Positions 2,688-19,766 of a stretch of DNA of 64,000 bases are shown here, in pieces. Under the pieces are notes generated by a model. That model was given only the letters and a program-made list of their open reading frames with translations. It did not search any database and had not been told where the DNA came from. The number at the start of each line of letters is the position of its first letter. Position 1 is the stretch's first letter. The stretch is from contig CAYPIW010000124.1 of assembly GCA_964410925.1 (NCBI GenBank), positions 14,821 through 78,820 of the forward strand. The letters are read 5' to 3'. The translations under genes and the position numbers were made by a program. Source of the DNA: an uncultured Desulfobacteraceae bacterium. GTDB lineage: Bacteria > Desulfobacterota > Desulfobacteria > Desulfobacterales > UBA11574.

Positions 2688-3440
2688 TTATTTTTGCAAC
2701 ATCACAAGGTTATCATCCAGGCCGTGCCGCAGGATATCCAAACGGGGCGAGAGGGAAACCACCTGCTCAGCAGAAATGTGTGCTAATCGGAAAGGGAAAA
2801 TGCTTGGGCTGTTTAGCAGGTCCTTGATGGCGGCTGATCCGTTCATACGAGCATGGAGAGATGCTTCCACCAGCCATGCGATGACCTTGGCATCCTTTAT
2901 CGGATACTGCTTTCCTGAAATATAAGCGCCTTTTATTGATGTTATATATAGAACACCCCAGTCCACAAAGCTGCTGATGACGTTCCTGGTGGCTCTAGAA
3001 ACTACCTCCCTGTCGCCATAGAGTTCCTTAATCCTTCTCCTTATCTGTGACGTTTCAATTGAGTTTTGAAGTCTAAGCAACCTACCGACTGAATCCGCCA
3101 CATCTCCCCAAAAGGGATAGGTTGCCATGATCATACCCCAATGCACCGCGCGCTTTTCTTCAGCGGACGATGATTCTAACAGCTTCAACCCATCATCTCT
3201 TAAATAACATAGGTAATTATCTGGGCTTATCCATGTCCTAAAAAGAATTGTGGCAGCTTTATCCCGACTGGAACGCTCTTTTGATCTGCTTTTAGGAAGC
3301 CAATTCATCAAGTAATCAGAGAGTTCTGATTTAATTTGGTCGCTTGTCATTCCAGCTAATAATAGATTAGAGACTTTCACAAGCCATTGATATCGAATCC
3401 TTTGGCTACTAAAACCTATCTGGGCCTTCTGTTTGTTCAT
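2688..3440 (-). CDS. brxA: BREX type 3 terminal protein (BrxA-position protein)
   Basis: 250 aa. It overlaps the pglZ stop by 4 bp and occupies the position BrxA has in canonical type 3 loci. The assignment rests on position only, with no strong motif recognised. Confidence 0.5.
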   Translation of the reverse strand: MNKQKAQIGFSSQRIRYQWLVKVSNLLLAGMTSDQIKSELSDYLMNWLPKSRSKERSSRDKAATILFRTWISPDNYLCYLRDDGLKLLESSSAEEKRAVHWGMIMATYPFWGDVADSVGRLLRLQNSIETSQIRRRIKELYGDREVVSRATRNVISSFVDWGVLYITSIKGAYISGKQYPIKDAKVIAWLVEASLHARMNGSAAIKDLLNSPSIFPFRLAHISAEQVVSLSPRLDILRHGLDDNLVMLQK

Positions 3441-5449
3441 GTATCCCTCATTTCGATTTGTACAAGAGGGACGAAAATTTCTTCAAGAGAAGCTCCGCCG
3501 TGTCCGACAAGGCGTTCGGTTTCTCGAACAAATGCCGAGCGACCAGGAGCCAGCAGAGCTAAATAGTCCTCGGGCAGACCGATCGGCGGCCATTCCAGGG
3601 CGTCAGGGAATCGCTCTTTGACTTGACCTCGCAGCAAGGAATCGGGGTAAATTCGAACACGTTCACCGCGCAGGTCTGCAACTGCTCCCTCAGCGGGACG
3701 ACCGTATCCGGCGGCCTCAATATTTCCATGATCCGAACTTAAATAGACACGGAAACTGTTCTCCAGAAGCAGATCAATGAGGTTTGCCATGAACGGTTGA
3801 CCAGCCCACTGTCGAACCTGGTTGTGCATCCCCGCACTGCCGAGCTCCATGCCATGCATAATCTTGTCTACTTTGTCCACAACCAGCCCCACGATGCGTG
3901 TCCTCGGCCTGGCAACCATCACCGCTACGCTATCCAAGTTGCCGTCACCCAGCCCTTTTGCGTATGCCACTTCTTGTTGTGTCAACCCCTGGTCTACCCA
4001 GAACTGGGTCCATAACGCAGGCTCCTTTTCAGTGGTATGGATGCTGTTCGGAAAATAGATGGGCGGCTTTCCTGCAAAGGCCGCCTGTCGTGAAACAGAG
4101 GTGATGGTCGGTATCCAAGCAAAAACCGCATTTTCTCGGAAACGATATCTGGGACGTTGCTTGGCAAGCTCCTTTCGTATGACGATCCACTGATCCAGCG
4201 AAAGGCCGTCCAACAGGACAAACGCCACCTTGTGTTCTTTATCGTCGCTTATATATCTGGAAAGGAAACGGGGAATATGGTGGAGCATAACTGGCGGAAC
4301 CGGTGGCAGATTGATCAACCCCGCATAACGACTTTTCAGCCAGGAAACAAGCACGGAATCAATTCGAGTTTGCAGCGTTACCATCTCCTGGCGGGTCGAT
4401 TCAGACAAGACCATATCCGATTCAAGAGTCAGAGCAACAAGCTCTGCCCAGGTCCTGGCAAAATGGAACCAGCCTTCATACTGTGTATCCTCTTTTGGAA
4501 CGGCAGAGGCTAAAGTTTTAAGGAGGCCATCCGCGCGGCGCGACCTATCAGCCTTCTCGTCCGTTCGGATACCCATGGCAAGCCAGGTTTTTGACAACGA
4601 TTCCGCTTTTTCATGGGGAACAGCCTCAAGAAGTCCTTCATAGAACAAATTGTCGATATAAACACGGATGTCGTCATGATCGAATGGTAAATCCGAAGGA
4701 CCGGGGAACTCAAAGCCATAGGATTTCTCATTTTCCTGAATGCCGTTGCTGCCCTGTTTTGTTGACCGGTCGAGAAAAATGGGCCAGCGTTCCTGAAGGA
4801 AGGCGAAAAACGCTTCTCGGTCAGGGATAATGGAATCGAGCGACCATCCTTCAAAGCCGTCGTTCTGTCGAAGGACCTGGATGAAACGTTCATCCAGAAT
4901 CGTCGGAATGCGCTGTTCACGGTAATGGCGACGCAGTAGCACGCGAAGCAGATCAGATGGCTTTCTGATCAGTTCAAGCGCGATCTCGAACACATGTCGC
5001 AGAACGAACTCTTTTGTAGCGTTGTCGCCTAAGACGCCGGGTGCATGTCGTTCTTGGGAATCAAAAAGCGCTTCAAGATCTCCGCGGTCCAAGGCGGCTA
5101 TCACTGGATAGCTCAAGTTTGGGAATATCTCTCCAAGGTTGAAAGATAACCGACGACCAGCTTGGAGCATATCGTACGGCAAAGAACCAAGATCGCTGGC
5201 TCCTGAGCGGAGTGCGACGACCAGATCCGTCTGCTCTCCCTTGTCCCAGCGGGAACGGAATTTGGTTTCATAGGCATAACGGAAGGCAACATGATCCTCG
5301 AATGGGATCAATTCAAATCCCCGCTCGCGTATCCCTTCAAGAATCCCTTCTTCCAGTAGAAGCCCATCTGGATCTGCAACTAGTGTCAGACGGGCCACAT
5401 TTGGAGTGAACTCCTTGAGAATCTGGTCGCGCCAGCTACTCATGGGCAC
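3437..5449 (-). CDS. pglZ: BREX PglZ, alkaline-phosphatase-fold protein
   Basis: 670 aa. The C-terminal half has PglZ-type motifs (AFVLLDGLSLDQW, TSVSRQAAFAGK, LSSDHGN). Confidence 0.85.
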   Translation of the reverse strand: MPMSSWRDQILKEFTPNVARLTLVADPDGLLLEEGILEGIRERGFELIPFEDHVAFRYAYETKFRSRWDKGEQTDLVVALRSGASDLGSLPYDMLQAGRRLSFNLGEIFPNLSYPVIAALDRGDLEALFDSQERHAPGVLGDNATKEFVLRHVFEIALELIRKPSDLLRVLLRRHYREQRIPTILDERFIQVLRQNDGFEGWSLDSIIPDREAFFAFLQERWPIFLDRSTKQGSNGIQENEKSYGFEFPGPSDLPFDHDDIRVYIDNLFYEGLLEAVPHEKAESLSKTWLAMGIRTDEKADRSRRADGLLKTLASAVPKEDTQYEGWFHFARTWAELVALTLESDMVLSESTRQEMVTLQTRIDSVLVSWLKSRYAGLINLPPVPPVMLHHIPRFLSRYISDDKEHKVAFVLLDGLSLDQWIVIRKELAKQRPRYRFRENAVFAWIPTITSVSRQAAFAGKPPIYFPNSIHTTEKEPALWTQFWVDQGLTQQEVAYAKGLGDGNLDSVAVMVARPRTRIVGLVVDKVDKIMHGMELGSAGMHNQVRQWAGQPFMANLIDLLLENSFRVYLSSDHGNIEAAGYGRPAEGAVADLRGERVRIYPDSLLRGQVKERFPDALEWPPIGLPEDYLALLAPGRSAFVRETERLVGHGGASLEEIFVPLVQIEMRDT

Positions 5450-8246
5450 CTCCTTTCACGTGGATAACGATAAGAGGCACCATTTCAGGATACACTTGGG
5501 CTTTACGCTTAAGGTCCTCGTTCCACGTCTGCTCTTCCTGCCGCAGGAGGTTCAACCGATGGTCGCGAACCTGGGGAAGGCCGACTCGTTCTATAGCACT
5601 ACGCCTGGCCGCGAAGGCATATTCCCCTTTTTCTCTTTCTCGGGTCAGACGCGATTGGTGTTCTTGAACAAGCTCATCATAGATGGTTCGCCCTTGCTCT
5701 TCTGCAATCCCTGCCATTCTATCGAAGGCTTCCTTGGATTTGTCCATGTCAAGATGCGTTCGGACATTAGGCGTCACACCCAGAAGCTTGTCCCAGAGAT
5801 GCCTGGCGGTTGGTGCAAACACCTTCCCTCCATCAGCTATGAACAGAGGCATGATCCGGTAGTGATTCCATTCCATCGTTGTGATGCCGATCCGCCAGAG
5901 AGACCATAGGCCCGTAACTTCGTTGGTGATCCCTGGAATTGTGACAACGGAGATCTGCTGCCCTGGAACAAATCGAGGCAATCTTATGGCCAGCCCCCGA
6001 ATCCTGGAATCTTCCAATGTCAAATGGCGGGCTGTAGGGGATTGGTCGGCTTCCTTGCCGCTGAAGACGACATTGGCAATTGTTTCGCCGTCTGGCCACG
6101 TCAAATTCCAGGTTCGTCGCTTCCGTTCAGCTTTGCCTCCGTGAGCGTTCAGATAACTCACCGTCATCCGTTCAACCCAGTGTGGAAAAGGGTGGGTCAT
6201 AAGTCGTTGGGCTTCAAATGGTTCCAGGTCCTCTGTGGTTCCCAGGACAGATGAACTCGCCTTTGCATCCCGAGCCTGATCCTGCAAATGAGCGATGACC
6301 TTGTCTACAGATGTGTCGATCTCATCCGGATTGAGGATGGCTTCCACATGTAAGTCATCAAAGATCTGTCCCGCCTGTGCCGAATCGAGTACGTCCCCGG
6401 TCTTGTCTATACCGAACTCCTCGAAGATAACCGCAAGCTTCTCCTCCAGCACTTCCCGGACATGGTGTTCGACCGAAGCCTCAAAAACGAAATTAATGGC
6501 GCGCACCACATGGTTTTGGCCGATACGATCAACCCGGCCGATGCGCTGTTCAAGCCGCATTGGATTCCAGGGGATGTCGTAATTGATCACCACATGGCAG
6601 AATTGCAAATTCAAACCCTCGCCGCCTGCATTGGTGGAAATGAGAATGCGCGTCACCCCGGCAAAGGTATCCTGGGCTTTTTTACGCTCATCCATATTCA
6701 TTGAACCGTTGAGACAGGCAATAGGAAAGCCACGCTCAACCAGGAACTGCTGCAGCATCTGCTGAGTCGGCACAAACTCGGTGAATACCAGAACTTTCAG
6801 TTCAGGGTCGTTTTCATCGGCCTGCAGACGATAGAGCCAATCGAGCAGGGCCTCTGCTTTGGCATCTGCCCCTGCCTGTTCACAGCGGGTGGCCGCATCG
6901 AGAAGCAGCTTTACCTCGGCACGTTCGTTTTTAAGCGCTTTCAGTCGAGTGGTTAGAAGCGTTTCGACTTGCTCTTGACTGTCGAGATCAGCCCACTCCT
7001 CATTGGAGTACATGGGAAATAGACTCAGTTGCTCCTGCGGTGTTTCGAGCGCCTCCAACCTTCGTTCCAGCGTAGTACGGATGGCACTCGTGCTGGAAAC
7101 TACCAGACGCTGCATCAATATCATGAGGAATCCGATGTAGCTGCGCTTCTCGCGCTTGGCTTGGTTGTAACCTTCTCGCACATACTCTGTGACCGCATCG
7201 TAGAGCTGCCGCTGGTCCTGATGCCGATCCTTCCAGGAGACCGCAGCAAGTTCTGTCTTACGAGGTTTGAAGAGGGGTTTGCCTTCAGCGGTGATAGCAA
7301 GTCGTTTTTCAGTCCGGATCACATAGGGTTGGACCCGGTCCCGTGTGACGCTGCCCACATCAGGAAACGCCTGGGTATCGATCAGGGAGACCAGCCTATG
7401 GAAAGCATCGGTCTTACCCTGATGCGGGGTTGCCGACAGCAGTAAGAGATACGGAGCAGCCTCGGAGAGCCCCTGGCCCAGCTTAAACCGGGCCACCTGG
7501 TCGGTGCTGCCGCCAAGCCGGTGGGCTTCGTCCACAACGATTAGATCCCAGCCGGCGGTGATCAGGTCCTCAAAGCGCTCCTGGTTGTACTCGGCCATCT
7601 GCTTGTCCGACCATCCGCGACGACTTTCCAGCGGTTTGACAGAATCCATGGAACAGACCACCTGCGGATGGCTCCGCCAGATGTTGTTCTCTTTGGCGAT
7701 ACGCCGATAGGCCGAAAAATCGCTGGGGATGAGCAGCCGAAAGTCCTCGTTAAAGTGAGTACGCATCTCGGCTACCCATTGGGTCACAAGGCCTTTCGGG
7801 GCGACAACCAATGTTCGCTTGGCCAGCCCCCGTAGCTTGAGCTCGCGCAGAATGAGTCCGGCCTCGATGGTCTTGCCCAGGCCGACCTCGTCCGCCAGCA
7901 GGTAACGCACACGGTCCCCGGCGATGGCTCGGGATAGGGCCCGGATTTGGTGTGGCAGCGGAATGACTGATGTTTCAATGGGTGCGAGAAGCATATCCTG
8001 GGTCAGGACATCGGCTACCCGCGCAGCAGCGGTTACATTGGCAATACCGTCAGAGGTGCCGGTCCCGGCATTCTCCAAGGGGGAAAGCCTGGCCGCAGGC
8101 ACTCGGACCACCGAATCGCTGCCTGGCAGCCACACCCGGCAGGTTGTTTCGCCCCAAAGAGTCTGGGTTTCGATGACCTGACAGAGCTGCCCGTGGTCCG
8201 GGCTGAAATACCATGCACTGTAACCTCTGGGTTTGGAGAGATTCAT
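5436..8246 (-). CDS. brxHII: BREX type 3 SNF2/DEAH helicase BrxHII
   Basis: Helicase motifs: LLADEVGLGKTIEAG (I), VVDEAHRLG (II), LLSATP (III), GGEGLNLQ and QRIGRVDRIGQ (VI). The start is set at ATG 8244-8246, which forms an ATGA overlap with the upstream stop. The track ORF extends to 8297. Confidence 0.85.
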   Translation of the reverse strand: MNLSKPRGYSAWYFSPDHGQLCQVIETQTLWGETTCRVWLPGSDSVVRVPAARLSPLENAGTGTSDGIANVTAAARVADVLTQDMLLAPIETSVIPLPHQIRALSRAIAGDRVRYLLADEVGLGKTIEAGLILRELKLRGLAKRTLVVAPKGLVTQWVAEMRTHFNEDFRLLIPSDFSAYRRIAKENNIWRSHPQVVCSMDSVKPLESRRGWSDKQMAEYNQERFEDLITAGWDLIVVDEAHRLGGSTDQVARFKLGQGLSEAAPYLLLLSATPHQGKTDAFHRLVSLIDTQAFPDVGSVTRDRVQPYVIRTEKRLAITAEGKPLFKPRKTELAAVSWKDRHQDQRQLYDAVTEYVREGYNQAKREKRSYIGFLMILMQRLVVSSTSAIRTTLERRLEALETPQEQLSLFPMYSNEEWADLDSQEQVETLLTTRLKALKNERAEVKLLLDAATRCEQAGADAKAEALLDWLYRLQADENDPELKVLVFTEFVPTQQMLQQFLVERGFPIACLNGSMNMDERKKAQDTFAGVTRILISTNAGGEGLNLQFCHVVINYDIPWNPMRLEQRIGRVDRIGQNHVVRAINFVFEASVEHHVREVLEEKLAVIFEEFGIDKTGDVLDSAQAGQIFDDLHVEAILNPDEIDTSVDKVIAHLQDQARDAKASSSVLGTTEDLEPFEAQRLMTHPFPHWVERMTVSYLNAHGGKAERKRRTWNLTWPDGETIANVVFSGKEADQSPTARHLTLEDSRIRGLAIRLPRFVPGQQISVVTIPGITNEVTGLWSLWRIGITTMEWNHYRIMPLFIADGGKVFAPTARHLWDKLLGVTPNVRTHLDMDKSKEAFDRMAGIAEEQGRTIYDELVQEHQSRLTREREKGEYAFAARRSAIERVGLPQVRDHRLNLLRQEEQTWNEDLKRKAQVYPEMVPLIVIHVKGGAHE

Positions 8247-8932
8247 ACCCTGGCCTCCAGCCTCAACTGATTGCTTTTGATACCGGAGCGCGACCAATGT
8301 TGGTCAACGGATTGGATAAAAGCAGGGCGAACTAATTTGGCCCTTCGCGCAAGCCAATCTCCTTGGTCAATTCGAAGATATAGCCCCTCTGCAGGTTCTT
8401 TGCTAAGTTTTGATTGAGAAAGAAGACTTTTTAATTCCGAAAAGGAAAAGTGACCGCGCCCTAAAATCGGCACCTGGAAGATGCCAATTTTACGAAGAAA
8501 CTGGTCCCGTCTCGGACATGAAAAGAATTTCACGTATTTCTTATCAAAGATATCGTATCCCAAAAACCAGTCTGGCAATCGATCATAGCTGATGGAGTGC
8601 TGTGCATAGCACCATTCTCCAAAAAGGATGAATTGATCTGTAAGCTGTTCAAAAAAGATGTCTATTTTTAAATTAAGCCAATCGGATAGCTTTTTCCACT
8701 GACCTGAGCTTGGAAGATGCAGATACGCCCCTCTATTTTGGGCACGGACATTTCCCTCAGCATCAAATGAGATTCCAAGGTTGGCCCCATCTACTTTTTC
8801 TTCAACAACAAGTTCATGACGAAAAAGTTCATCTCGTTCGGATTTCGAAAAGACCTTGTCGTCTCTGACTTCGACGTCACTAAGAAGTGCCAGGTGCGGA
8901 GTTGAAGGGAACTTATAAAAATCGTCTTTCAT
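8243..8932 (-). CDS. minimal RNA-ligase-like nucleotidyltransferase
   Basis: 229 aa with covalent nucleotidyltransferase motifs in order: EEKVDGANLG (I, KxDG), FILFGEWC (III), EGLYLR (IV), RAKLVRP (V). There is no room for an OB domain. It has ATGA overlaps with both neighbours. Confidence 0.7.
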   Translation of the reverse strand: MKDDFYKFPSTPHLALLSDVEVRDDKVFSKSERDELFRHELVVEEKVDGANLGISFDAEGNVRAQNRGAYLHLPSSGQWKKLSDWLNLKIDIFFEQLTDQFILFGEWCYAQHSISYDRLPDWFLGYDIFDKKYVKFFSCPRRDQFLRKIGIFQVPILGRGHFSFSELKSLLSQSKLSKEPAEGLYLRIDQGDWLARRAKLVRPAFIQSVDQHWSRSGIKSNQLRLEARV

Positions 8933-9462
8933 GCTCCCATTTTCTCCACATATTTTGCCTTAACATAATCAGGACACAGGAAATTTACGGTAATACCGAC
9001 CTCTACCAGTGCATCCTTCCATCCCCACCACTTGCTATCCGTCGCCTGTAAGACCGGCGGTTTTTTCGGATGGGCGTTCGAGACAGCGATGAACTTCCGA
9101 TCAGTGTTATCGAAGTTGGCCAAATCCTCACGGTCAGGAAATTCATCGTAGGAATAGCCGTTTTTGGTGATTATAACACGATCCACTTTGCTTGGATTCC
9201 ATTGATGGTCATTGACCCATTTAGCGAATGTGTTACCAACACCGCCTTGGCCGCTCAAGGAAAGATTGCTTATGTATTCATTAAAAATTTCACCCATATC
9301 ATCAATAACAAGTCCACCGTTTTTGGTGATATTCTGAATTTGACGAACGCATTCAGAAACGCAGGAGTCTGGAATATTAGATGCTGGATCTGGTTTTGTT
9401 GCCAAATTCGCGCTAATGGCTACATTCGTATCAACTATGCATTTATTGGGCGAACCGCTCAT
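8929..9462 (-). CDS. PIN-like nuclease-fold protein
   Basis: 177 aa. Four acidic positions sit in PIN order and spacing: IVDTNVAI, SECVRQ, DRKFIAVSNA, LQATDSKW. It has 4-bp overlaps on both sides. Confidence 0.55.
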   Translation of the reverse strand: MSGSPNKCIVDTNVAISANLATKPDPASNIPDSCVSECVRQIQNITKNGGLVIDDMGEIFNEYISNLSLSGQGGVGNTFAKWVNDHQWNPSKVDRVIITKNGYSYDEFPDREDLANFDNTDRKFIAVSNAHPKKPPVLQATDSKWWGWKDALVEVGITVNFLCPDYVKAKYVEKMGA

Positions 9463-10865
9463 TCTGAAACCTCCGATGCGCTTCTGTTTTGTCTCATACG
9501 CTTTTTCATCACCGCTTTTGCTTGTTCAGCAATGTCTCCCATTTCATCGCCGAAGAAGTTGTCCGGCCAGTTTTGAATGTTCCCAAACAGGTCAATTTGT
9601 AATGTATCCAAAGTAGCAGGAGTCTTGGTGATGTTGGCGAAATAGGCAGACACTTTTTCTTGCGGCACGATCTCTTCGGCAATCCGCCGTTGCAGTCGAC
9701 GTAAAAAATGCTCAGAGTGAGTCTCTATGATCAATTGGATATTCCTATCAGCGCCTTTTTCTCTGGAATTGACGACATCAATCATTACATCGGCCAGCGC
9801 CGATTGGGCGCTCGGATGTAAATGGATTTCAGGTTTCTCCATAAGGATGATCGACCCTCTTTGTGCATAGAAGCTTTGAACTAATACAGGGAGTACCTGA
9901 GAGATGCCGAAGCCGACATCCGGGAGATCCACCCAATCCTTTGAACCCTTGGTACGAATCTTGACCTCGTATTCCTGACGCTGCTCGGAAATCGGGTTGA
10001 CTTTGAACGCCTCAATCAATCCCATTTCTTTGAGCTTCATTGCGATAATTTCCTCGAATGGTTTGGCTGGCCGATTATATCCAAGGCTGATCTTGCGGTT
10101 CCGAGCGGCCAATATGGCTGCGACGGTATTTTCTCCCGTATAACCCACACTTTCCGGTTCGATACCCGTCCATGAATAAAGCCTTTCCGCTTTTGTGCGA
10201 AGCGGTCCAAGATAGGTCAGAGACCGGAACAACTTTTCATGTTTCAGATTAAGTTCCTGAACAAAGTCCGCATTTTGATGATAGGCAACCACTTCGTCGG
10301 GAAAGCCGTAAAAACGCACCGGTGCGCCGGGATACCAGACTCGCCCTTGCTTTCGCTTCAGCGCGTAATGGACTGCATCAACTTTGTAATCGGACTTTGT
10401 GTTGGATTTTCGTTCCATTCCGATGGAGAGACTGGATTCATCGTCTTCCATCAACTCGTATTTAAGGTGATCAAGCACCACCATGTGCTGATCCTTGTCT
10501 CCCAGCCCGGCTTGCGCTTGAAAGGCCAACCCATCTCCAGCAAATGACTCTCCCGAAACAGGATCTTTGAACTTCAACAAGCCAGGAAATGTCCATCGAT
10601 ATTCAAAAGCGATTTTATTTTCCGAGTTGCGGTGAAAAACCATTTCCTGATAAGAGCCAAGTTGTACCGCGGAGTTTTTCCCGCCGGGATAGAACACGGC
10701 CTTCCGGTCGGGTGATTCTACCGTCTGTTTCAGCATCATCAAGAACTGGCCGATGCTGGACTTGCCGGAACTATTGGCACCAAAGAATAGGGTAATGGGT
10801 GCCATGCGAATAGTGCCAGTTTCCTTCCAGCACTTAAAATTTTGTATTCTTAGTTGTTTCAGCAT
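9459..10865 (-). CDS. ABC/AAA_21-type ATPase with DUF3696-like C-terminus
   Basis: 468 aa. LRIQNFKCW followed by Walker A FFGANSSGKSS, Walker-B-like ILMEKPEIHLHP, and H-loop IIETHSEHF. The C-terminal NWPDNFFGDE tail resembles DUF3696. Confidence 0.75.
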   Translation of the reverse strand: MLKQLRIQNFKCWKETGTIRMAPITLFFGANSSGKSSIGQFLMMLKQTVESPDRKAVFYPGGKNSAVQLGSYQEMVFHRNSENKIAFEYRWTFPGLLKFKDPVSGESFAGDGLAFQAQAGLGDKDQHMVVLDHLKYELMEDDESSLSIGMERKSNTKSDYKVDAVHYALKRKQGRVWYPGAPVRFYGFPDEVVAYHQNADFVQELNLKHEKLFRSLTYLGPLRTKAERLYSWTGIEPESVGYTGENTVAAILAARNRKISLGYNRPAKPFEEIIAMKLKEMGLIEAFKVNPISEQRQEYEVKIRTKGSKDWVDLPDVGFGISQVLPVLVQSFYAQRGSIILMEKPEIHLHPSAQSALADVMIDVVNSREKGADRNIQLIIETHSEHFLRRLQRRIAEEIVPQEKVSAYFANITKTPATLDTLQIDLFGNIQNWPDNFFGDEMGDIAEQAKAVMKKRMRQNRSASEVSE

Positions 10866-11158
10866 GCTTTCACCTCACCATCCCGATAAACTGATTTGGC
10901 TTTTTCAAGAAATCTCTGTTCCGAAGTATCACCAGAAACGGCCAAATCGTATTCTCTAAGCAAATCTTTCAGTTTATATAGTTCCTCCAGCATGATTTTC
11001 ATATACGCGATTGTTTCAGGTTGATACTGGAATCCATAAAGAGAATCAGACGTCTTGGAATTCTTGTACTCAACGTCATTGAATTCGATATCCTGCTCAA
11101 TCTGCTCGGCGATGTATCCCAGATAGCTGTCTTGATAATCGAAATGTCCACCACTCAT
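10859..11158 (-). CDS. small acidic hypothetical protein (first gene of the nested cassette)
   Basis: 99 aa. A GGAGG lies 9-10 nt upstream of the ATG. Its stop overlaps the ATPase start (ATGCTGA). No family recognised. Confidence 0.55.
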   Translation of the reverse strand: MSGGHFDYQDSYLGYIAEQIEQDIEFNDVEYKNSKTSDSLYGFQYQPETIAYMKIMLEELYKLKDLLREYDLAVSGDTSEQRFLEKAKSVYRDGEVKAC

Positions 11159-11161
11159 TTT

Positions 11162-14020
11162 TTATTTCCCTCCTGTCCTTGTTAACGCCTGGTCATACCA
11201 CATGAGAAGTTTGGGATCTTCCTGGAGAATCTTTTCCGGTATCTTGCGAGCCACAGCGATGATGATAGCGTAGTCGCGCTCATGCCATGCCTTCTTGAAT
11301 CCAGCCCGGACGGCCTCCAGGCGGAACACTTTCAGGCGTTTCTGCTTCGATTCGCGGTATTCCTCGAACTCGCGCATCAGGGCCCGCTCACGCAGCTTTT
11401 CCAGGTCGCCGGCCTTGTTCGGGTCAGGCACGTACCAGCGGTCCTTGCCTTTGGCCTTGAGTGCAGGATCGTCCTTTTCCAGATTGCGCAGCTCCTTGAA
11501 GTTCGAGGAGAGGTAGCTGTGAATCTGGCTGGGGACATCGCCCTTGCCGTCGTAGCGCAGGAAGTTCTGCTCAAGCAATACATCAAGTTCAAGCATCTTT
11601 TCGTTCTTCTGCCAGCCACCGATCTCCTGCATGAATTGCGGTTTCAGGTCGCCTGCCGTTTGCGGTTTCTTTGTGATTTGCTGTTTGAGCCACTGGATCG
11701 CAGAAGCCTCGTCGAGAACAAAGAGCTGAAGCTGGAGCACCTCCTTGACTGTCATCCGTTTCTTGTCGTACTCGATAGCTTGATCAGGCAGGAAATACAT
11801 TTCTTCACGAACAGAAAAGCGTTGTTCGAGACCAGCATAGAAATCAGCCGAATTCATGGGAACCATCACGCCTCGGCGAACATGGAATGCCACCATTCGG
11901 TCGAAGAGCAGATAATTCATTCGCTCTGGAACCAATTCCAACTGCCTGTCTTTGCTTACGAAAACAGGCAATTGCTTGAGATGCGTCCGAACAAAATCCC
12001 AGACACCGTCCTCGGTTCCCGCCTCCAGCTTGAAGCGATCTTCAAGGCCTCCATTGGGTTTGTATGCAGAGATAACCAAATCCTGTTTTACAAGCTTCTG
12101 GATCGATTGTTTGTAAGTTTCCTGCTGTTTGTCGAGTGTTCGCACATCAGCAACTACAAAACCTGCCAATTCAAGTGCCTCTTGAATGGCAACCCAGACG
12201 CTGTTGCTTGAATTGTGAAATTCAATCGTAATCCAACGACCGGACTTCAATACACGGTGTAACTCCTGGAATGCCAAAGACATCAAAACCTGGTAATCGT
12301 GAAGCGTCCGACTACGCCCCTTATCCATAACAGCTTCTGGTTCCCGTTGCGTCAAAACCTTGAGCCAAGCCTCCCAGAAGAAATTCAGTTCGGAGTAATG
12401 GAGATTATTTCCGAATGGAGGATCAATAAAGATGTAGTCAAGGCTTGATGCCGGAAGCACCTCTATATTGGTCGTGGACTGACAAGTGATTGCGGTTTGC
12501 CCATAAACTCCAGGCAAGGAAAGCTTCACAAGGCGCTTAAGCTTGTTGGTCATTGAATATTCTGGGGAGACTTCAGAAATCAATGAGCCAACAAACAGCG
12601 TACCTGAAAAATACCGGTTGACCTGCGACCCTCCGATTCTACCGAATTGAATTGGTTGATAGCGGTTCATTTTTGTGAAGCCAAGGTTATTGCCCTGGGC
12701 AAAGAAGCGTACAAACGTAGAGGAACACGTATTTAGTTTCTCCCAGAGTCTGGCGTACACCATCATGGATCGGCGGAAATAGAAATGGTGCAAGTGGCTA
12801 ATGCCTTTAAGATGATATCCATCTTTCCCCTTTCGTTCACCCTCAGGCATTTCAAAGGTAGGGAACCAATCCTGAATGGCTGTATCCTCGATACGCTTCA
12901 GCAATGACAGGTCAGCATCATATGGCTTCTTTTCGTAGCGATGTTTTCCAATTTGATAATTGATCAGTACCGGGGCGTAACGCACTAATCGGTGTGTTTC
13001 ATTGCGGGGGTTATCAAAGTACGATTGCCATTGGCGTTGAAGTGATTTCTTGTCGAGTTCAGCGGCACAGCTCGGGCACTTAAAATTCTTATTGACAGCG
13101 GAAGTCTCCTTATCAACAGCCGCTTCAAAATAAATGACTTCCTTTCCACAATGCGGACAGTTGAATGTCTCACTCCAAACCGTATAGTTAATTTTTCCTT
13201 TTGTTTTCCCATCCGTATGAAGCGTCTCGTACATCCACCCGCATTCCTGCTCAACCTCCTTGAGAATGCGTTTAGCCTCTTTTTCAAAAGCAGCCATATC
13301 TACCGGTGTGTTGTAGTTGTAGGCAATAAAGGTAGCCGCTGGTGACAGGTCGTTGAGAACCACCCGGCGTGCTCCGAGCTTGGAAAACGGTTTCCAAATG
13401 GGTTTTCCATCTTCCCCTGTCTCCTGCTGGTAAACGGTTCCGTCTTTCTCCACTCTATATCCGAGGGATTCAACCGTGCTTTTATCCCTGCATAACTGAG
13501 CCGCAACCCCTGTCATTCCCGTTCCGCAGAAACCGTCGAAGACCAAATCCCCAGGTTGTGTATAATGGAGGATATACCGCATGATGGCCTTGTGCGGCAC
13601 CTTGGTGTGGTAGGAGTGGGCGTTGTAAATTGGATCGTTCTTTCCCTCGCTCACATCCGCCGCAAAGGGCTCACGTCGGTAGTCATCAGTGGCCGGGTCA
13701 TATGGCTTTCCATACTGCTTGATAAAATCTTCAATGAATGGGTTCGGGCAGGCCGTGTAATAAGGCGGATCGGACAGGGCCAGGATGTCCTCGTCCTCGC
13801 CAATCGGGAACCCCTCGATCTTCCGAAATTCCGGGTCCTTCAGTTTCTCGCTTAGTTTTTCCAAGAAATATCCCCGGCGCTTCTCTTCGTTTTCGAAAGT
13901 CATGCCGAGACATTCCACCGGCCTTTTGTCCACCACAAATTCCTCTTCAAAAAGTTTTCCAGAACCTGGTTTAGCGGGGACAATTTTTGTTTTGAACAAT
14001 TGTTTCTGTTTGCCGTTCAT
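11162..14020 (-). CDS. pglXI: BREX type 3 DNA methyltransferase PglXI (N4/N6 MTase family)
   Basis: 952 aa. YHTKVPHKAIMRYILHYTQPGDLVFDGFCGTGMTG (SAM motif I region), IFIDPPFGNN (motif IV) and RVLKSGRW. A CPHC...CPSC zinc ribbon lies between them. Confidence 0.85.
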   Translation of the reverse strand: MNGKQKQLFKTKIVPAKPGSGKLFEEEFVVDKRPVECLGMTFENEEKRRGYFLEKLSEKLKDPEFRKIEGFPIGEDEDILALSDPPYYTACPNPFIEDFIKQYGKPYDPATDDYRREPFAADVSEGKNDPIYNAHSYHTKVPHKAIMRYILHYTQPGDLVFDGFCGTGMTGVAAQLCRDKSTVESLGYRVEKDGTVYQQETGEDGKPIWKPFSKLGARRVVLNDLSPAATFIAYNYNTPVDMAAFEKEAKRILKEVEQECGWMYETLHTDGKTKGKINYTVWSETFNCPHCGKEVIYFEAAVDKETSAVNKNFKCPSCAAELDKKSLQRQWQSYFDNPRNETHRLVRYAPVLINYQIGKHRYEKKPYDADLSLLKRIEDTAIQDWFPTFEMPEGERKGKDGYHLKGISHLHHFYFRRSMMVYARLWEKLNTCSSTFVRFFAQGNNLGFTKMNRYQPIQFGRIGGSQVNRYFSGTLFVGSLISEVSPEYSMTNKLKRLVKLSLPGVYGQTAITCQSTTNIEVLPASSLDYIFIDPPFGNNLHYSELNFFWEAWLKVLTQREPEAVMDKGRSRTLHDYQVLMSLAFQELHRVLKSGRWITIEFHNSSNSVWVAIQEALELAGFVVADVRTLDKQQETYKQSIQKLVKQDLVISAYKPNGGLEDRFKLEAGTEDGVWDFVRTHLKQLPVFVSKDRQLELVPERMNYLLFDRMVAFHVRRGVMVPMNSADFYAGLEQRFSVREEMYFLPDQAIEYDKKRMTVKEVLQLQLFVLDEASAIQWLKQQITKKPQTAGDLKPQFMQEIGGWQKNEKMLELDVLLEQNFLRYDGKGDVPSQIHSYLSSNFKELRNLEKDDPALKAKGKDRWYVPDPNKAGDLEKLRERALMREFEEYRESKQKRLKVFRLEAVRAGFKKAWHERDYAIIIAVARKIPEKILQEDPKLLMWYDQALTRTGGK

Positions 14021-14039
14021 ATTGCAATACCGTTTTGAA

Positions 14040-14109
14040 CCGCGAATGGACGCGAATCAACGCTAATAAAAGATGACAACAATTCGTGTCTATTCGTGTT
14101 CATTCGCGG
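14040..14109. promoter_or_regulatory. 28-bp imperfect inverted repeat built from three 10-bp iterons per arm
   Basis: The left arm is cgcgaatgga/cgcgaatcaa/cgctaataaa. The right arm is aattcgtgtc/tattcgtgtt/cattcgcggt. By manual pairing of 28 positions: 22 Watson-Crick, 3 G-T and 3 mismatches. It sits between the stop of the 530-aa gene and the pglXI start. Confidence 0.55.
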
Positions 14110-15692
14110 TTTCCCTTCAGTATTTTCCTGCCGTTCTCAGTCAGGCGGTATTTCTGCTTGCTGCTGCGGGGTTTGTCGGGTATGGTCATTTCAACGAATC
14201 CGGCATTGAGCAAAGGAGCCAGGACTTGGTCCCTGAACTTGGTCCGGTTTTTCCTTTCCAGAACGTCCATCAGTTCTGTAATCCTTTGTTCTGAAACGAG
14301 ATGTTCCATGATACGAACTTGGTCCCGACTTGGTCCCGACTTGGTCCCTGCTTGGGGTGCGACTTGGGGTGTACCTTTTCCTGTGACCTGGGCATCATCA
14401 CGGGTCTCAGTAGGGCCGGTACGTTCGAACATTGCCTTCATCAGGTCAGTAGCCATGTCCACTTCTTCATCAAGCTCGGGAATAAAGAACTCAAATGCCT
14501 TCCAGGATCTATCATTTTTGTAGGTCGGCTCGGGATGGCCCAGTTTCTGCCATTCCTCGCGCATCATGCGCATACCGGTACCCGCCTGCTCGCACATTGT
14601 GATGCGGCGCATCCCCATGGCGATGGACGGATTTCGGACCTCCTTTTCACCCGGTTCGAACAGGCGGGAATCATCGCCAAACACGTCACCCGGGTTCCAG
14701 AACTGGATGCCGTTGCGGAAGAACTTGATCACGGCCTTTCGGGAATGGTCACCGTAGTCCTGGTGGATGAGCAGGTTCACGGCTGCTTCGCGGAATACAC
14801 GAAAACCGGACGGATCGTCACGGCGACCAAGGGTTACCGGATCGATATTCCTAAACGGTTTAGGCATGAAAAACTTATACTTGCTGACCAGTTGATCCCA
14901 TGCCTGGATGATGTTGTCCTCGCAGACGATCCGGTCGATCCAGCGGGTTTCCGGCATGGGTTCGTCGGTAGCGTACCCGAGAAACTGGACATCAAGGGTC
15001 GGCCGGGGAATAAGCTGATGAACGGCCAGAGACGATCCGAAGAGCATGATGGCCGCCCTCGTCGGAATAAATCGCTTTCTGTCTCGAAGAAGGAATCCCC
15101 AGTGATAAAGAAATTCCTGATCGGGTTGTCGGGGATCAAAACCGTCGTTGACTGCATGAAAGCGGTCGCGGTACCATTTCAGGCTACTCGAGTCAAAGGC
15201 TTCTTTCAGGAGCACCCTTTCGAACGGCTGGCCGTCCCACCGGTCGGCTGTAGCATCTCGCAGCATACGTTCGATATCCTGCATCTGGGCCTTGAAGTCG
15301 CCACCACCCTTGCGGAGGAATGTGCGCCGAATATCACCATCAAGATAAACCGGCTTGCGCGTACGCGGATTCTCACCAATTCGGAAGATCAGAACCACCT
15401 TATCACCAATGTCCAGCCGCTTTTCGTCTACATCGATATCATGGTTGATTTTCGCATCGGCATGCAGGACGGAAAGAAAATCGTTCTGCACCTTGTCGGT
15501 TTTCTCAACGCCACTTATTTGAAATTCTTCGCCATGCTGGGCAACACCAAAAACCATCCAACCGCCATGGGTGTTGGCAAATGCGGACACTGTCTCAAAA
15601 GCGGATTTCGGCACTGCCGACCGAGCTTCCTTGAACTCGACGTCGTTCCATTCACCCGCTTTGAGCCGTCTTTTCAGTTCCTCGATCTTCAT
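14100..15692 (-). CDS. Schlafen/AlbA_2-domain protein with C-terminal wHTH (often mis-annotated RecG-like)
   Basis: 530 aa. The N-terminus EWNDVEFKEARSAVPKSAFETVSAFANTHGGWMVFGV is the AlbA_2 (divergent AAA) signature. The C-terminal tail PDKPRSSKQKYRLTENG is typical of this family. Confidence 0.7.
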   Translation of the reverse strand: MKIEELKRRLKAGEWNDVEFKEARSAVPKSAFETVSAFANTHGGWMVFGVAQHGEEFQISGVEKTDKVQNDFLSVLHADAKINHDIDVDEKRLDIGDKVVLIFRIGENPRTRKPVYLDGDIRRTFLRKGGGDFKAQMQDIERMLRDATADRWDGQPFERVLLKEAFDSSSLKWYRDRFHAVNDGFDPRQPDQEFLYHWGFLLRDRKRFIPTRAAIMLFGSSLAVHQLIPRPTLDVQFLGYATDEPMPETRWIDRIVCEDNIIQAWDQLVSKYKFFMPKPFRNIDPVTLGRRDDPSGFRVFREAAVNLLIHQDYGDHSRKAVIKFFRNGIQFWNPGDVFGDDSRLFEPGEKEVRNPSIAMGMRRITMCEQAGTGMRMMREEWQKLGHPEPTYKNDRSWKAFEFFIPELDEEVDMATDLMKAMFERTGPTETRDDAQVTGKGTPQVAPQAGTKSGPSRDQVRIMEHLVSEQRITELMDVLERKNRTKFRDQVLAPLLNAGFVEMTIPDKPRSSKQKYRLTENGRKILKGNRE

Positions 15693-15701
15693 CCCTGTCT
15701 A

Positions 15702-15754
15702 TCCGCGTTCATCAGTAGTTCTTTTTTCCCATATTTGCGTTTATTCGCGATTTC
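15702..15754. promoter_or_regulatory. further copies of the TTCGCG-type iteron upstream of the AlbA_2 gene
   Basis: tatttgcgtttattcgcgatttc (15732-15754) matches tattcgtgttcattcgcggtttc (14091-14113) at 19 of 23 positions by manual count. There is an extra unit, tccgcgttca, at 15702-15711. The units lie in an AT-rich 236-bp gap. Confidence 0.45.
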
Positions 15755-15928
15755 ACACCAAGATTAACTGTTATATACGTACTTCAAATTATTTAGTACC
15801 TATTAATTGGGTATTTTACCTATTTCTCTCGGTTTTGTCTTATATTTCGCAATTATGCGGATGGGTTGCAAAAGGTTATGAGTAATCGGCTGTTTTTGAA
15901 GGTATTCGAAATTCAGCGATTTCATTTT

Positions 15929-18900
15929 TTACTCCAGCACAATTCTTACTTTTCCGGGCTCCTTGCCCTTGGTAAGTTCATCCAGGTATTCCTCGAATCG
16001 TTTTTTTATCTCTGCCGGTGTCACCGGTGAACCGCCGAGGAGCAGCGCCGCGCGCAGGTCGGCGATCTTGACCGGGACCTTCTGGAGGCCGGAAAACGCC
16101 TCGCCCAAAGCGTGGATGAAGTCCTGATCGAGATTGTCCGGCAGGACCCGCTTCTTGATAAAACCGTTCACCAATTTCTTTGGCTCAGACTTTAGCAGGT
16201 TCAGATTGCCCTTGGTGGTCGGGTCCTCCAGGTTGGTCAGGAGTGTCTGGGTCCAGTTTTCCACCATTTTGTCCAGCTCTTCGTCCAGACCATCCAGAAC
16301 CGAGCCCGCATGTGCGGCGAGCGGCTCCGAGCCGGGTTTAAAATTGCAGTTCGGGCAAACGGGCGAAGCGTTTAGTTCCTGCTCGGTGAGAGCGAAGCAG
16401 CTCTTCAAACCGCCGAGACGGTTCTGGAAATCGGTCAGGTGCTGGCGGGGCATCAGCTCAATAGTGGAAAGCTTCTGCAAAACCTTAAGCCGATCGTCGG
16501 CCATTAGCTTGGTCTTGCGTTTGTCCTCATTTACCCCCAGCCGCGCCTTGACATGCAACGCCAGATAAGCCTGCACATAGGTTTTTTTGAGGTCAGTCAG
16601 TTTGCGCTGGGTTTGTTGGCGGAATTTAGCCGCGCTGCGTTTGTTCGGATTGACGAGTTGAATGAGCACCTCGTCACGAGCCGTCTTCATTTTGGCCACC
16701 CATTCATGTTCCGCGGGCATTACCGCTTCAGCGGTGGAAAGAAAGGACGCGGTGGAACCAATATCTGTCACCAGCTCTTGGAGAGATTCGATCTCTGCCA
16801 AGGAATTGAGTCCGTCGCGATGACTGGTCACCTCTTGGGCGTCGTAGCGAAAGTTCTTGAGCTTGCCGGGCGAATTGAACGCTTGAAGGCTTTCAAGAAA
16901 ACACTTCAAGCGTTCGAGTGCTGAGGACTGAGTGCTGAGTGCTGATTCGTCAAGAAGGTTCTTCCCCCAGAAAACGATGCCTTGCTGCACGGATTGCTGG
17001 GCCATGACGACACGTTCTATCATTTTGGCAATGCGCGTCTGCATTTCGGTGACGGGGTCTGTATTTCCCTGGGTGACCAGTTGGGCCATACCAGGCGTTA
17101 GTCCGAGCAGTTCGAACAGTGCCTCTAAGGCTTGAAGATTCCAGCCTTTGGGCTGCTTAATATGTTTGAACTGGATAAGTTCGTTGATACCAGTACTAGC
17201 CATTTGGGGAAGGCCCATAGCGTCGAATTCCTTGCCAGGGATGGCAAGTACAAGAGCGCCTCTGTAGACTAATGCAGCCAGAACCACGATCACCCATTCC
17301 GGTTCCAGCCGATACCGGTCCTTGTCCAGATATTCCAGGCCCTTATCATCCTGGATCAGTTCAGAGCGATTGACCACCTGGCCGTGGCCCTTCTTTTTTA
17401 GAAGGGCGAGGATATTTTTGGCGTATTTCGATTTGTAGGGATCGAGCCGTTCACCGTCGAGCAGTTCCAGGGCATCGAAAACGGCTGTTGCCTGTTTGGT
17501 TCGGTTCTGTCCGGCAATGGCGCGCAGGGCATCCTGTGCGGCCTGGTCCCGGTTGGCACCGGTGATGAGCACCGAAAAGAAGGGGTATTCAGGCGCCCGA
17601 TCCTGGAAATGCGCTCCCATGCAAATGCCGGCGATGGTGTTTACCAAGTCGCGAAAATTAATGCGCTCATGGGTGCCGATGCCTGAAAATTCGCGTATCG
17701 ATTTACCCTTGGCCCATTCGGTAAGCGACTTGGTGCGTCCCTGGTAGGTGACTTCAAAAGCGGTAGCCATATTCTTTTGCAACCATTGTACAAGATCTTG
17801 CAGGAAACCCGATGATTTCTGGTCGTAAGGTATTCGTTCCTGACTTGATCTCCTAAATGCCAGGTCAACGGCCGCAGCATAGCTGCTGAGCACCGTCCGA
17901 AATTCTTCGTCCATGTTCGTCAAACGCAGAAATAGCTCGTCAGACTTCTGCACGTCCTTGAAGTGGGGTGGCTCGAAGGGTTGGATGAAGTAGAGGTAGA
18001 AGTCCCGCGGCGGCACGGCGGTGGAGCGCTCGTTGGGCGCGCCGAAAAACAGGTATCCCTGGCGTGCTGCCTTGCGCTCTAGCCATTCGAGCTCGTACTG
18101 CCAGATCTTGTAGCCGGTGACGTAGGTCTGATCGGTGCACTCCATGACCCGTTTCAAAGCCTCGTAGTAATAGCGGTCCAGCTGGGAAGGTTCTAGAGTC
18201 TGAGCGCGCTGTTCGATGATTGCATCAACATCCTCGATTTTCTTTAGATCAAGGTAAAACTGTCGATTGTCTGGATTAAAGCTGACGAATTTTCCGCTCA
18301 CCGTTTTATGGATTTCTCGAAGGACGGTCTCCACCTGGGTGAGCAGATCATCAGCCGGGTCTCCGCCTAGCTCCTCGATACCCGGCTGATAAAGGCAAAG
18401 TCCATCGCGCAGCTCTTCGGCTGTTGCTCCAATCGTGGAATAAATATCACCGGTGGTGAGACGGTGGATTGACAGAGCATGAATAAGACGTAGCGCAATG
18501 GGTTTGTATGCCGGACGCGTGAAAGCTAGCTGGATACGAGATTCCAACACCTGGCTGCAGTCGATGACCGCCTTGATGTCCGGCACCGCACGGAATGAGG
18601 GGTTTTCTCGTAGGTTTGTCCAATAGGAATCATAAGCGATGAGGCCTGGCCGGTCATCCGGAAGTTCCTGGCCAAGCAGCTTCTTCATGGCCAAAGACAA
18701 GGTCTTTAGCACTTCGCGTTTTTCTACCACGGTGACTCGCTCAAAGGAATCGATATAATCGGGATGCACCGGAAAGAGTTTGACGAACTCATCCATCCGC
18801 TCGTTCATATGGCCGTAGAACTTTCCAAACGGCGTGAGGTATTCCCTTATTTTGGCCTGCTGCTCTCCGGTTTTCTTGAGTAATCTCTCGGCGACAACAA

Positions 18901-19732: not shown

Positions 19733-19766
19733 CTCGCTTGCTCCCTTGCAATGGGATCTGTTGTTG

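Follow-up and report, generated by a model that had tools for sequence, protein, structure and literature searches.

A HEC-03-type ATPase/PIN pair with a coupled RNA ligase gene inside a type 3 BREX operon of an uncultured Desulfobacteraceae bacterium

Results

Four overlapping genes lie between pglXI and brxHII

The window analysed here, a 64,000-nucleotide stretch of contig CAYPIW010000124.1 (positions 14,821 to 78,820; GenBank assembly GCA_964410925.1) from an uncultured Desulfobacteraceae bacterium, contains a type 3 bacteriophage exclusion (BREX) operon, and between the pglXI and brxHII genes of this operon lies a cassette of four genes encoding a small acidic protein, an ABC-type ATPase, a PIN-like protein and an RNA ligase (Table 1). 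The type 3 BREX set around the cassette is complete, with brxF, brxC, pglXI, brxHII, pglZ and a brxA-like gene in one operon. As set out below, the whole is a three-gene, ligase-bearing branch of the validated HEC-03 defence family, accompanied by a sporadic small gene and lodged in a BREX cargo slot.

An earlier note on this DNA had described four co-directional minus-strand open reading frames between PglXI and BrxHII, and they are present to the base where it had placed them; the motif strings that it quoted were all found in the translations. The junctions are coupled, as had also been described: the gene of the 99-aa protein and that of the ATPase share ATGCTGA, and an ATGA overlap is found at ATPase/PIN, PIN/ligase and ligase/BrxHII, the last of these junctions reading GTATGAAT. 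The best start of BrxHII is the ATG at 8246, with the PADLOC BrxHII model aligning from residue 10 of the protein that begins there.

Table 1. The type 3 BREX operon of the window and the genes of its cassette (positions are those of the window).
Feature	Position	Strand	Evidence
Type 3 BREX operon, whole, hosting the cassette	2688-20246	-	PADLOC and Pfam
BrxF	19767-20246	-	PADLOC, 4e-73
BrxC	15929-19732	-	PADLOC, E = 0
Embedded 530-aa protein, SLFN_AlbA_2 + HATPase_c_4 + Fic-like_C	14100-15692, between brxC and pglXI	-	Pfam
PglXI methyltransferase, upstream flank	11162-14020	-	PADLOC PglX/PglXI, E = 0
Small acidic protein, 99 aa, isoelectric point 4.5	10859-11158	-	
ABC-type ATPase, 468 aa, AAA_15/AAA_21 with DUF3696 tail	9459-10865	-	Pfam, PADLOC
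PIN-like protein, 177 aa	8929-9462	-	PADLOC HEC-03 partner model
Stand-alone ATP-dependent RNA ligase nucleotidyltransferase domain, 229 aa	8243-8932	-	Pfam RNA_ligase
BrxHII helicase, downstream flank; its ATG overlaps the ligase stop	5436-8246	-	PADLOC BrxHI/BrxHII, E = 0
PglZ	3437-5449	-	PADLOC, E = 0
BrxA-like	2688-3440	-	weak Pfam match only, 2.9e-4

The ATPase and the PIN-like protein belong to HEC-03

HEC-03, a Hma-embedded candidate from Pseudomonas cichorii, consists of an ABC ATPase and a VapC-like PIN protein; cloned alone, it lowered the plaquing of phages by orders of magnitude, an effect that depended on both genes (Payne et al., bioRxiv 10.1101/2024.01.29.577857). The ATPase of the window matches the PADLOC model of the HEC-03 ATPase (PDLC04148, 'HEC-03B') at 7e-128, its residues 1-460 aligning with positions 1-456 of the 458 in the model, and it is 39% identical to the tested P. 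cichorii ATPase. The 177-aa protein matches the PADLOC model of the HEC-03 PIN protein (PDLC04147, 'HEC-03A') at 2.8e-30, over residues 8-166 and model positions 3-154 of 159, and is 35% identical (E 5e-28) to the tested PIN protein. Note that the A and B labels are swapped between the two sources: in the preprint the ATPase is HEC-03A and the PIN protein HEC-03B, and in PADLOC the ATPase model is HEC-03B and the PIN model HEC-03A. As the PADLOC matches are full-length and the identities to the tested pair reach these values, we assign the ATPase/PIN core to HEC-03. The earlier note had not recognised the four-gene combination as a named defence system; for this pair, which has been tested experimentally, that no longer holds, and its proposal of an ATPase and PIN-like nuclease defence module embedded in BREX is supported.

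In the P. cichorii system and in the window alike, an ABC ATPase with a DUF3696 tail is followed by an overlapping PIN-like gene, and both pairs are embedded in a larger defence operon, which is Hma there and type 3 BREX here. The tested system has two genes, whereas a coupled ligase gene comes third here and in ~94% of the close relatives. Payne et al. and their supplements make no mention of an RNA ligase; the tested sequences are given in their supplementary table 2 (bioRxiv 10.1101/2024.01.29.577857). No model of PADLOC-DB v2 matches the ligase or the 99-aa protein, and as this release has no model of the ligase, loci that bear one are currently called two-gene HEC-03.

The Pfam matches of the ATPase are to AAA_15 (2e-28), AAA_21 (1e-17) and DUF3696 (2.6e-9). 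Besides the HEC-03 model, the PADLOC models of NsnB (6e-61), AriA and GajA also match, which places the protein in the ABC ATPase clade that serves in defence. The relatives all have an unchanged Walker A, GANSSGKSS. Walker B ends in D-E in ordinary ABC ATPases, where the glutamate is catalytic, and in E-Q in this family. The motif ends in M-E-Q-P-E (MEQPEIHLHP) in 73 of the 74 relatives and in M-E-K-P-E in the window copy only, where codon AAA at 9834-9836 specifies K344 in place of the glutamine, a single-base change at an otherwise invariant site. Read against what is generally known of ABC ATPases, the E-Q ending would mean slow or no hydrolysis and a nucleotide-bound switch, so that the ATPase is probably an ATP-bound switch. 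In Menshen, NsnB has E-N at this position (PMC12065111).

In the PIN-like protein, the acidic residues D11, D54, E58, E62, D118, D121 and D142 are conserved among 82 sequences including that of P. cichorii, and in the Acinetobacter variant described below too. The earlier note had picked out four acidic residues in PIN order; one of them, E37 in SECV, is not conserved and lies outside this set. Classical VapC-like motifs are present: hhDTNV at strand 1, D-x-x-[FI]-A-x-x-x-A where a helix begins, and T-D following a late strand. An AlphaFold 2 model built with 28 close homologues has a predicted local distance difference test score (pLDDT) of 66, with the N-terminal strand below 50; in it the acidic residues follow strands 1 and 2, open helix 119-130 and follow strand 138-140. 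This placement in the predicted secondary structure matches that of the VapC-type catalytic residues as placed by Matelska et al. (PMC5499597), and Payne et al. find the HEC-03 PIN protein structurally similar to VapC ribonucleases (bioRxiv 10.1101/2024.01.29.577857). A Foldseek search of the PDB with the model gave no significant match, with the PIN proteins 3ix7, 3i8o, 2fe1 and 5f4h in the top ten at E 0.7-2.6; a Pfam search up to E 10 gave PIN and PIN_3 only at 0.09-0.11, not significant, and one relative has a sub-threshold PIN_3 match (0.094). Sequence and profile searches against the PDB returned nothing significant, and a search of a phage genome collection returned no match. We propose the 177-aa protein as a candidate metal-dependent RNase effector.

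A stand-alone ligase domain with RNA-repair relatives

Pfam finds in the 229-aa protein the RNA_ligase domain (PF09414, 5e-33; residues 40-199) and no other domain, and a PHROG RNA ligase family matches at 3.5e-24. The residues K46/D48/G49, F104/G105/W107, E182/G183/Y185/R187 and R197/A198/K199 are invariant, and so are motifs I, III (FGEW), IV (EGxYxR) and V (RAKxV) in 39 database homologues and 72 locus-derived sequences. The protein had been described as a ligase with motifs I, III, IV and V and no OB domain, which agrees with these results: the catalytic lysine and the motifs are intact in a bare nucleotidyltransferase domain, and the ligase is a conserved partner. Profile matches in the PDB are weak (3qwu at 0.011, 8uce at 0.13 and MthRnl, 5d1o, at 0.49), TIGR01209 matches at 3.5e-5, below its cutoff, and the AlphaFold 2 model (39 homologues) has a pLDDT of 38. 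Given these weak affinities to solved ligases, the low score of the model and the lack of an accessory domain, we assign the ligase to no Rnl family.

Among 1.8 billion cluster representatives, searched exhaustively, there are 2366 relatives of the ligase, 265 of them at E < 1e-30. Many of the relatives, 35-45% identical over the whole 229 aa, are ligase domains in proteins of 550-1390 aa that combine a 2H-SAK phosphoesterase, a PTP-SAK phosphatase, an AAA_33/tRNA-ligase-type kinase and one or two RNA_ligase domains. By their domain content, these multidomain proteins have the 'Swiss Army Knife' (SAK; Burroughs and Aravind 2016) RNA-repair architecture, and they are the nearest relatives of the ligase outside the triad formed by ATPase, PIN and ligase. 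They share the ligase domain with the window protein and differ in carrying a 2H phosphoesterase, a DSP-type phosphatase and a P-loop kinase, often with two ligase domains, and no PIN or ABC ATPase, whereas the window ligase stands alone. Judged from these architectures, the clade appears otherwise built for the healing and sealing of RNA ends, and it is found here without any healing domain. More distant stand-alone relatives are encoded by large phages. We also considered whether relatives of 800-1000 aa might be triple fusions of ATPase, PIN and ligase, whose lengths add up to 874 (468 + 177 + 229); this was rejected, as they have no ATPase or PIN similarity and are 2H/PTP/kinase/ligase proteins.

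The triad recurs in the same order across many phyla

One genome per species was scanned with a profile built on the PIN-like protein; 249 of these genomes encode a close relative, and the best 80 loci were taken. The locus set that was searched with the window proteins comprises these best 80 and three loci from ligase look-ups; counts are given over 82, and two pairs of loci are duplicates. In 77 of the 82 loci the ATPase, PIN and ligase genes adjoin one another in the same order, with the ligase directly downstream of PIN, and neighbouring genes overlap by 4 nt at ATPase/PIN in 59 of 64 loci and at PIN/ligase in 58 of 64. The hosts belong to Pseudomonadota, Desulfobacterota, Nitrospirota, Chlorobiota, Spirochaetota, Planctomycetota, Acidobacteriota, Verrucomicrobiota, Synergistota and others, and the identities, only 57-86%, bear the mark of a module that moves horizontally. 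Chance would hardly produce such an arrangement, as these three genes recur in this order in dozens of unrelated genomes. The question of whether the families co-occur in other genomes, with BREX and without it, thus receives a positive answer for the triad, which is widespread. It is the description as a four-gene cassette that has to be revised: the conserved unit has three genes, the 99-aa gene being present in 9 of the 82 loci and its relatives being found without the triad as well.

Where it is present, the 99-aa gene precedes the ATPase gene, mostly in BREX contexts, and we regard it as a sporadic companion outside the conserved core. Its product has no match in Pfam, PADLOC, NCBIfam or PHROG, and its homologues form only 76 clusters. 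One locus (L002) has kept the 99-aa gene and the ligase and lost ATPase and PIN, and in another (L031) the open reading frame before the 99-aa gene is a BrxC remnant. Distant relatives of the 99-aa protein overlap the BrxHII start in two BREX-3 loci without the triad (L086 and L087, 8001-8279), which carry a different DUF3696 ATPase and a 349-aa partner right after PglXI. A further distant relative (L084, 1609-1902) is encoded behind an RRXRR/HNH gene; the small open reading frames there form a phage-like run with a Dam-type methylase.

In three loci (L088-L090) the ATPase is followed by a single 384-aa protein, residues 1-157 of which are the PIN protein (59% identical) and residues 158-383 the ligase from its first methionine (66% identical). 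A natural fusion of this kind is a Rosetta-stone indication that PIN and ligase work together physically. The fusion gene (9688-10842 in L088) is found in BREX-3 loci that also have the 99-aa gene; in L088, genes for an AIPR (Abi-like) protein, an SMC-like ATPase and an AlbA_2 protein lie between PglXI and the 99-aa gene.

More divergent triads are found on mobile DNA. On two contigs classed as viral (L171, 1-3813; L172, 2467-8690), a triad with ~51% identity in PIN and ~48% in the ligase is the first cargo directly downstream of a P4-type tyrosine integrase, two integrases standing in tandem in L172, which suggests that satellites or integrative islands carry it. Triads with 33-39% identity in PIN and 42-44% in the ligase, annotated as 'DUF3696 protein / hypothetical / RNA ligase family protein', are found on plasmids of Aeromonas salmonicida, A. 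veronii, A. caviae, Tistrella mobilis, Azotobacter chroococcum and Rhodococcus aetherivorans. The third position of the module is thus usually taken by the ligase; it is sometimes taken by an HNH gene and sometimes empty, as in the tested HEC-03. An HEC-03-like cassette with an HNH third gene is found on three Acinetobacter soli plasmids, amid a helicase-related gene, an N6-methylase gene and further genes. On one of these plasmids (CP119202.1, 169227-171884; L186), the helicase-related, N6-methylase and hypothetical genes that stand before the cassette may be a Hma-type system; its ATPase is annotated as two pieces, an AAA ATPase and a DUF3696 protein, which suggests a frameshift.

The triad is enriched in type 3 BREX but lies mostly outside it

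BREX genes stand beside the triad in 24 of the 82 loci, always with the triad after PglXI and before BrxHII or PglZ. The pglXI-brxHII slot thus houses ~30% of the occurrences, and in ~10 of these loci BrxHII is missing there. Type 3 BREX is an uncommon system, so that this residence amounts to a strong enrichment. No BREX gene is found near the other 58 triads, whose flanks are mostly unrelated to each other, with many housekeeping genes and a few type I restriction-modification (R-M), MADS, AriA-like, Shedu and SoFic genes.

A scan centred on PglZ gave related BREX-3 loci, 34 of which extend for 6.5 kb or more upstream of PglZ. The triad is present in two of them, and a third locus with slightly less upstream sequence (L170) has it too; among these loci the cassette is therefore not a constant component of type 3 BREX. 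BrxHII is present in 25 of the 34, and PglXI and the next core gene lie 0.4 to 7.8 kb apart in the related loci, which makes the pglXI-brxHII junction a cargo hotspot. Overall, the 58 of 82 triads outside BREX, the heterogeneity of their flanks and the rarity of the triad in BREX-3 loci indicate an autonomous mobile defence cassette and fit poorly with one whose activity depends on BREX. The same figures tell against the idea of a PrrC-style guard of BREX put forward in the earlier note, as does the fact that the tested HEC-03 works when cloned alone.

Eight loci, L058 (= L001), L005, L015, L054, L067, L068, L111 and L170, have a type 3-like BREX without BrxHII in which the triad lies directly between PglXI and PglZ. 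That the triad replaces BrxHII was considered and rejected: BrxHII is absent more often from triad-bearing loci (10 of 23) than from triad-less BREX-3 loci (7 of 32), but not significantly so (Fisher p = 0.14), and sampling differed between the two sets. In L004 and L005 (865-3882), a 1006-aa protein with a reverse-transcriptase domain (RVT_1, 2e-7) is encoded between PglXI and the 99-aa gene, upstream of the triad. Around the triad of L020 (285-13604) there are three PglXI-like frames, two full-length and one half-length, and BrxHII lies 6 kb beyond; the BREX locus may be one that swaps its methyltransferase or is phase-variable.

Composition and neighbourhood of the operon

The G+C fraction per gene is 0.40-0.47 in the cassette and 0.49-0.55 in the BREX core, the mean of the whole window being 0.451. 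The cassette had been taken to be more AT-rich than its flanks as a sign of separate acquisition. The lower G+C fraction is confirmed and argues for differing histories, but the composition does not show which part is the newcomer, as the window mean implies that the BREX genes are no closer to the background than the cassette is. In the operon and the cassette, promoter-like and terminator-like sites are no commoner than in shuffled sequence.

The 530-aa AlbA_2/HATPase_c_4 gene has relatives in the same brxC-pglXI slot in L002, L015, L042, L067, L104 and L116, and in L086 and L088 a similar gene lies further downstream, past pglXI and other cargo genes. Directly before brxF (20256-20516, minus strand) is a gene for an 86-aa HTH_17 (AlpA-like) protein, as in L002, L021, L027 and L104. 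Just beyond the operon, on the plus strand (21107-22255), lies a gene for an AAA_14/DUF4143 ATPase, a family that also adjoins L002 and L003.

Comparison with other described systems

Menshen (NsnABC; PMC12065111) resembles the cassette in its NsnB-like ATPase, which has AAA_15 and DUF3696, E-x for D-E in Walker B and GxG for SGG, and in a partner that opens with a PIN-like domain, the PIN::ligase fusion of L088 mimicking the layout of NsnC. It often adjoins BREX and R-M systems, and in AlphaFold 3 models the DUF3696 tails of an NsnB tetramer hold the N-terminal PIN-like domain of the effector NsnC (PMC12065111). The differences are that none of the four open reading frames has an NsnA (ParB/DUF262) domain in Pfam or PADLOC searches, that the PIN acidic residues are conserved here and lost in the PIN-like domains of NsnC, and that the attached module is a ligase here instead of a BECR or other nuclease, the window PIN having no fused nuclease.

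PrrC in the EcoprrI locus offers a different parallel, that of an RNA nuclease linked to an ABC ATPase in a restriction-type locus, with an RNA ligase countering the damage. PrrC, however, fuses its ATPase to an anticodon-nuclease domain, whereas Pfam and PADLOC find no such domain in the cassette, which has a separate PIN-like protein. PrrC leaves 2',3'-cyclic-phosphate/5'-OH ends that need healing, and the ligase (the T4 Pnkp and Rnl1 case) is the phage's and not the host's. Moreover, most triads lie outside any R-M or BREX system, R-M neighbours being few.

According to the summary given by Matelska et al., Burroughs and Aravind (2016) described operons of PIN_3.COG1569, RNA ligase, ATPase and HNH genes as predicted conflict systems in which the ligase neutralises nucleases (PMC5499597). 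The domain cast, with PIN, RNA ligase, ATPase and sometimes HNH, is the same in that summary as here, and so is the idea of a ligase that neutralises a nuclease; the window PIN stays below the PIN_3 threshold. As far as the summary goes, these operons may be this very family, in which case the link to the ligase would already have been predicted in silico and the novelty would be lower. The concept of a nuclease-plus-ligase conflict operon is in any case not new. A full-text literature search, in which Burroughs and Aravind (2016) is represented by the Matelska summary, found no description of a ligase-bearing HEC-03 or of the triad in BREX.

HARP, a PIN_5-type protein-only RNase P, co-occurs with a circularising RNA ligase of the Rnl3 type (PMC12153264), and a link between PIN_5 and TIGR01209 has been noted (PMC5499597). 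In this case too there is a statistical link between a PIN-fold RNA endonuclease and an ATP-dependent RNA ligase, one of the PF09414/TIGR01209 kind. That association, however, is a genome-level co-occurrence in tRNA maturation, with another PIN family and no ABC-ATPase operon in defence islands.

Discussion

In what we consider the best explanation, the translationally coupled ATPase-PIN-RNA ligase operon would be a self-contained mobile branch of HEC-03 whose ligase reseals RNA breaks made by the PIN protein, a reading to which we give an even chance. In this explanation the module would have landed in the variable cargo slot between pglXI and brxHII and would be co-transcribed with the BREX operon. 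The NsnB-like ATPase would sense infection, regulate the PIN protein and hold it, probably through its DUF3696 tail by analogy with the Menshen models. Once triggered, the PIN protein would cut RNA, most likely tRNA or rRNA as VapC-type PINs do, so that translation and phage growth stall. The cuts would leave 3'-OH/5'-phosphate ends, which the co-encoded ligase could seal directly, without a kinase, a phosphatase or a cyclic phosphodiesterase, limiting leaky self-damage or allowing recovery after an aborted infection.

The end chemistry proposed here follows from the two-metal mechanism of PIN nucleases, in which the 3'-O is the leaving group (Matelska 2017, PMC5499597); PIN cuts are accordingly expected to carry 3'-OH and 5'-phosphate. 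Rnl-type ligases require 5'-phosphate and 3'-OH, whereas metal-independent RNases leave products on which healing enzymes must act beforehand (Iyer 2021, PMC7824862). If PIN ends already fit such a ligase, this would explain why the ligase of the triad, unlike its SAK relatives, has no healing domains. Reversibility through the ligase is therefore a reasonable inference, strengthened by the kinship with repair ligases and by the expected ends.

Several observations weigh against this explanation. The ligase cannot be an obligatory antidote, since the tested HEC-03 defends without one and four loci have an intact ATPase and PIN without the ligase (L031, L038, L040 and L066). On the three Acinetobacter soli plasmids the third gene encodes an HNH endonuclease, which is more in keeping with a slot for swappable effectors or accessory genes than with a partner dedicated to repair, and a covalent fusion of nuclease and ligase is awkward for a simple cycle of cutting and undoing. 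K344 could alter or disable the window's own copy of the ATPase. Finally, the PIN fold is suggested by PADLOC homology, a motif pattern and a mediocre model (pLDDT 66), and RNA enters the scheme as an assumed target.

The main rival takes the third gene as the effector or damage-locking module. The PIN protein would dock on the ATPase, in the manner of the N-terminal PIN-like domain of Menshen NsnC, and bring a variable partner, which in the case of the ligase would join or circularise fragments or adenylylate RNA ends, leaving damage beyond repair by phage-encoded Pnkp and ligase. Such a scheme accommodates the polymorphic third position (ligase, HNH or nothing), the NsnC-like layout of the PIN::ligase fusion with a PIN-like N-terminus and an effector C-terminus, and the match of the ATPase to the NsnB model at 6e-61. 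The weak affinity of the ligase to Rnl3/COG1423 (TIGR01209; 3qwu, 8uce, 5d1o), a group known for RNA circularisation (PMC12153264), points the same way, although this similarity is marginal (E 0.01-0.5). However, the PIN acidic residues are invariant, the HNH variant included, unlike in the inactive PIN-like domains of Menshen; two-gene HEC-03 defends without a third gene; and the closest relatives of the ligase sit in repair-type multidomain proteins. We regard this rival, with its unrepairable damage, as unlikely. A further possibility ties the module to its host locus: BREX proteins would silence it, and phage inhibition of BREX, for example by an Ocr-like protein, would fire it as a second line of defence in the manner of PrrC. 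Payne et al. discuss such logic for embedded ABC-ATPase systems (bioRxiv 10.1101/2024.01.29.577857), the 24 of 82 triads in type 3 BREX always occupy the same slot after PglXI, and in several BREX lineages the stop codon of the ligase gene overlaps or adjoins the start of BrxHII. But 58 of the 82 triads lie outside BREX near housekeeping genes, integrases and other defence genes, the triad is present in only 2 of 34 related BREX-3 loci (three with L170), HEC-03 was discovered in Hma and not in BREX and works cloned alone, and Pfam and PADLOC find no PrrC-type nuclease domain, all of which makes such a guard distinctly unlikely.

The setting on conjugative plasmids, beside Hok/Gef and AbiEii genes, and next to integrases would also suit an addiction or stress cassette of the toxin-antitoxin kind, or an operon for general RNA repair, that plays no specific part in phage defence and lies in BREX only because mobile cassettes tend to collect in defence islands. 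VapC-type PIN proteins are classical toxins. Burroughs and Aravind, as cited by Matelska et al., proposed PIN/ligase/ATPase/HNH conflict operons with a ligase that neutralises nucleases (PMC5499597). We nevertheless hold a cassette of this kind to be improbable, as the homologous pair has measured anti-phage activity, the ATPase falls in the defence ABC ATPase clade with its AriA, GajA and NsnB matches, and the triad is strongly enriched in BREX. Action of the nuclease and the ligase on DNA would be more surprising still, and we give it very little credence. The PIN-like fold does include FEN-type DNA nucleases, nucleotidyltransferase ligases can seal DNA nicks, the depositors' names of the best PDB matches of the ligase include 'DNA ligase' (3qwu, 8uce), an HNH DNA nuclease can replace the ligase, and the host locus, BREX, acts on DNA. 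Yet the ligase matches Pfam RNA_ligase at 5e-33 and has no OB or DNA-binding domain, its relatives are fused to an RNA-end-healing 2H phosphoesterase, a PTP phosphatase and a polynucleotide-kinase-like P-loop, and Payne et al. liken the HEC-03 PIN to VapC ribonucleases.

Taken at its widest, the proposal would be that of a widespread anti-phage module whose own ligase is complexed with its PIN nuclease, which makes RNA cleavage reversible or re-joins the RNA in a form that defies repair, and which has a functional link to type 3 BREX; in this full form we hold it to be possible but on balance doubtful. The finding refines the annotation of HEC-03, and the host-encoded, PIN-coupled ligase of RNA-repair type is its interesting part. 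It is directly testable, with three small genes and clear point mutants, and the homologues on plasmids of cultured Aeromonas, Azotobacter, Tistrella and Rhodococcus are at hand together with a validated two-gene relative for comparison.

Host defences that cut tRNA or rRNA are usually seen as one-way, ending in growth stop or death, and RNA ligases as phage counter-measures. If the proposal is true, bacteria can build the repair step into the immune module itself, and abortive infection would in such cases become a pause that can be undone, or the damage would be made proof against the repair enzymes of the phage.

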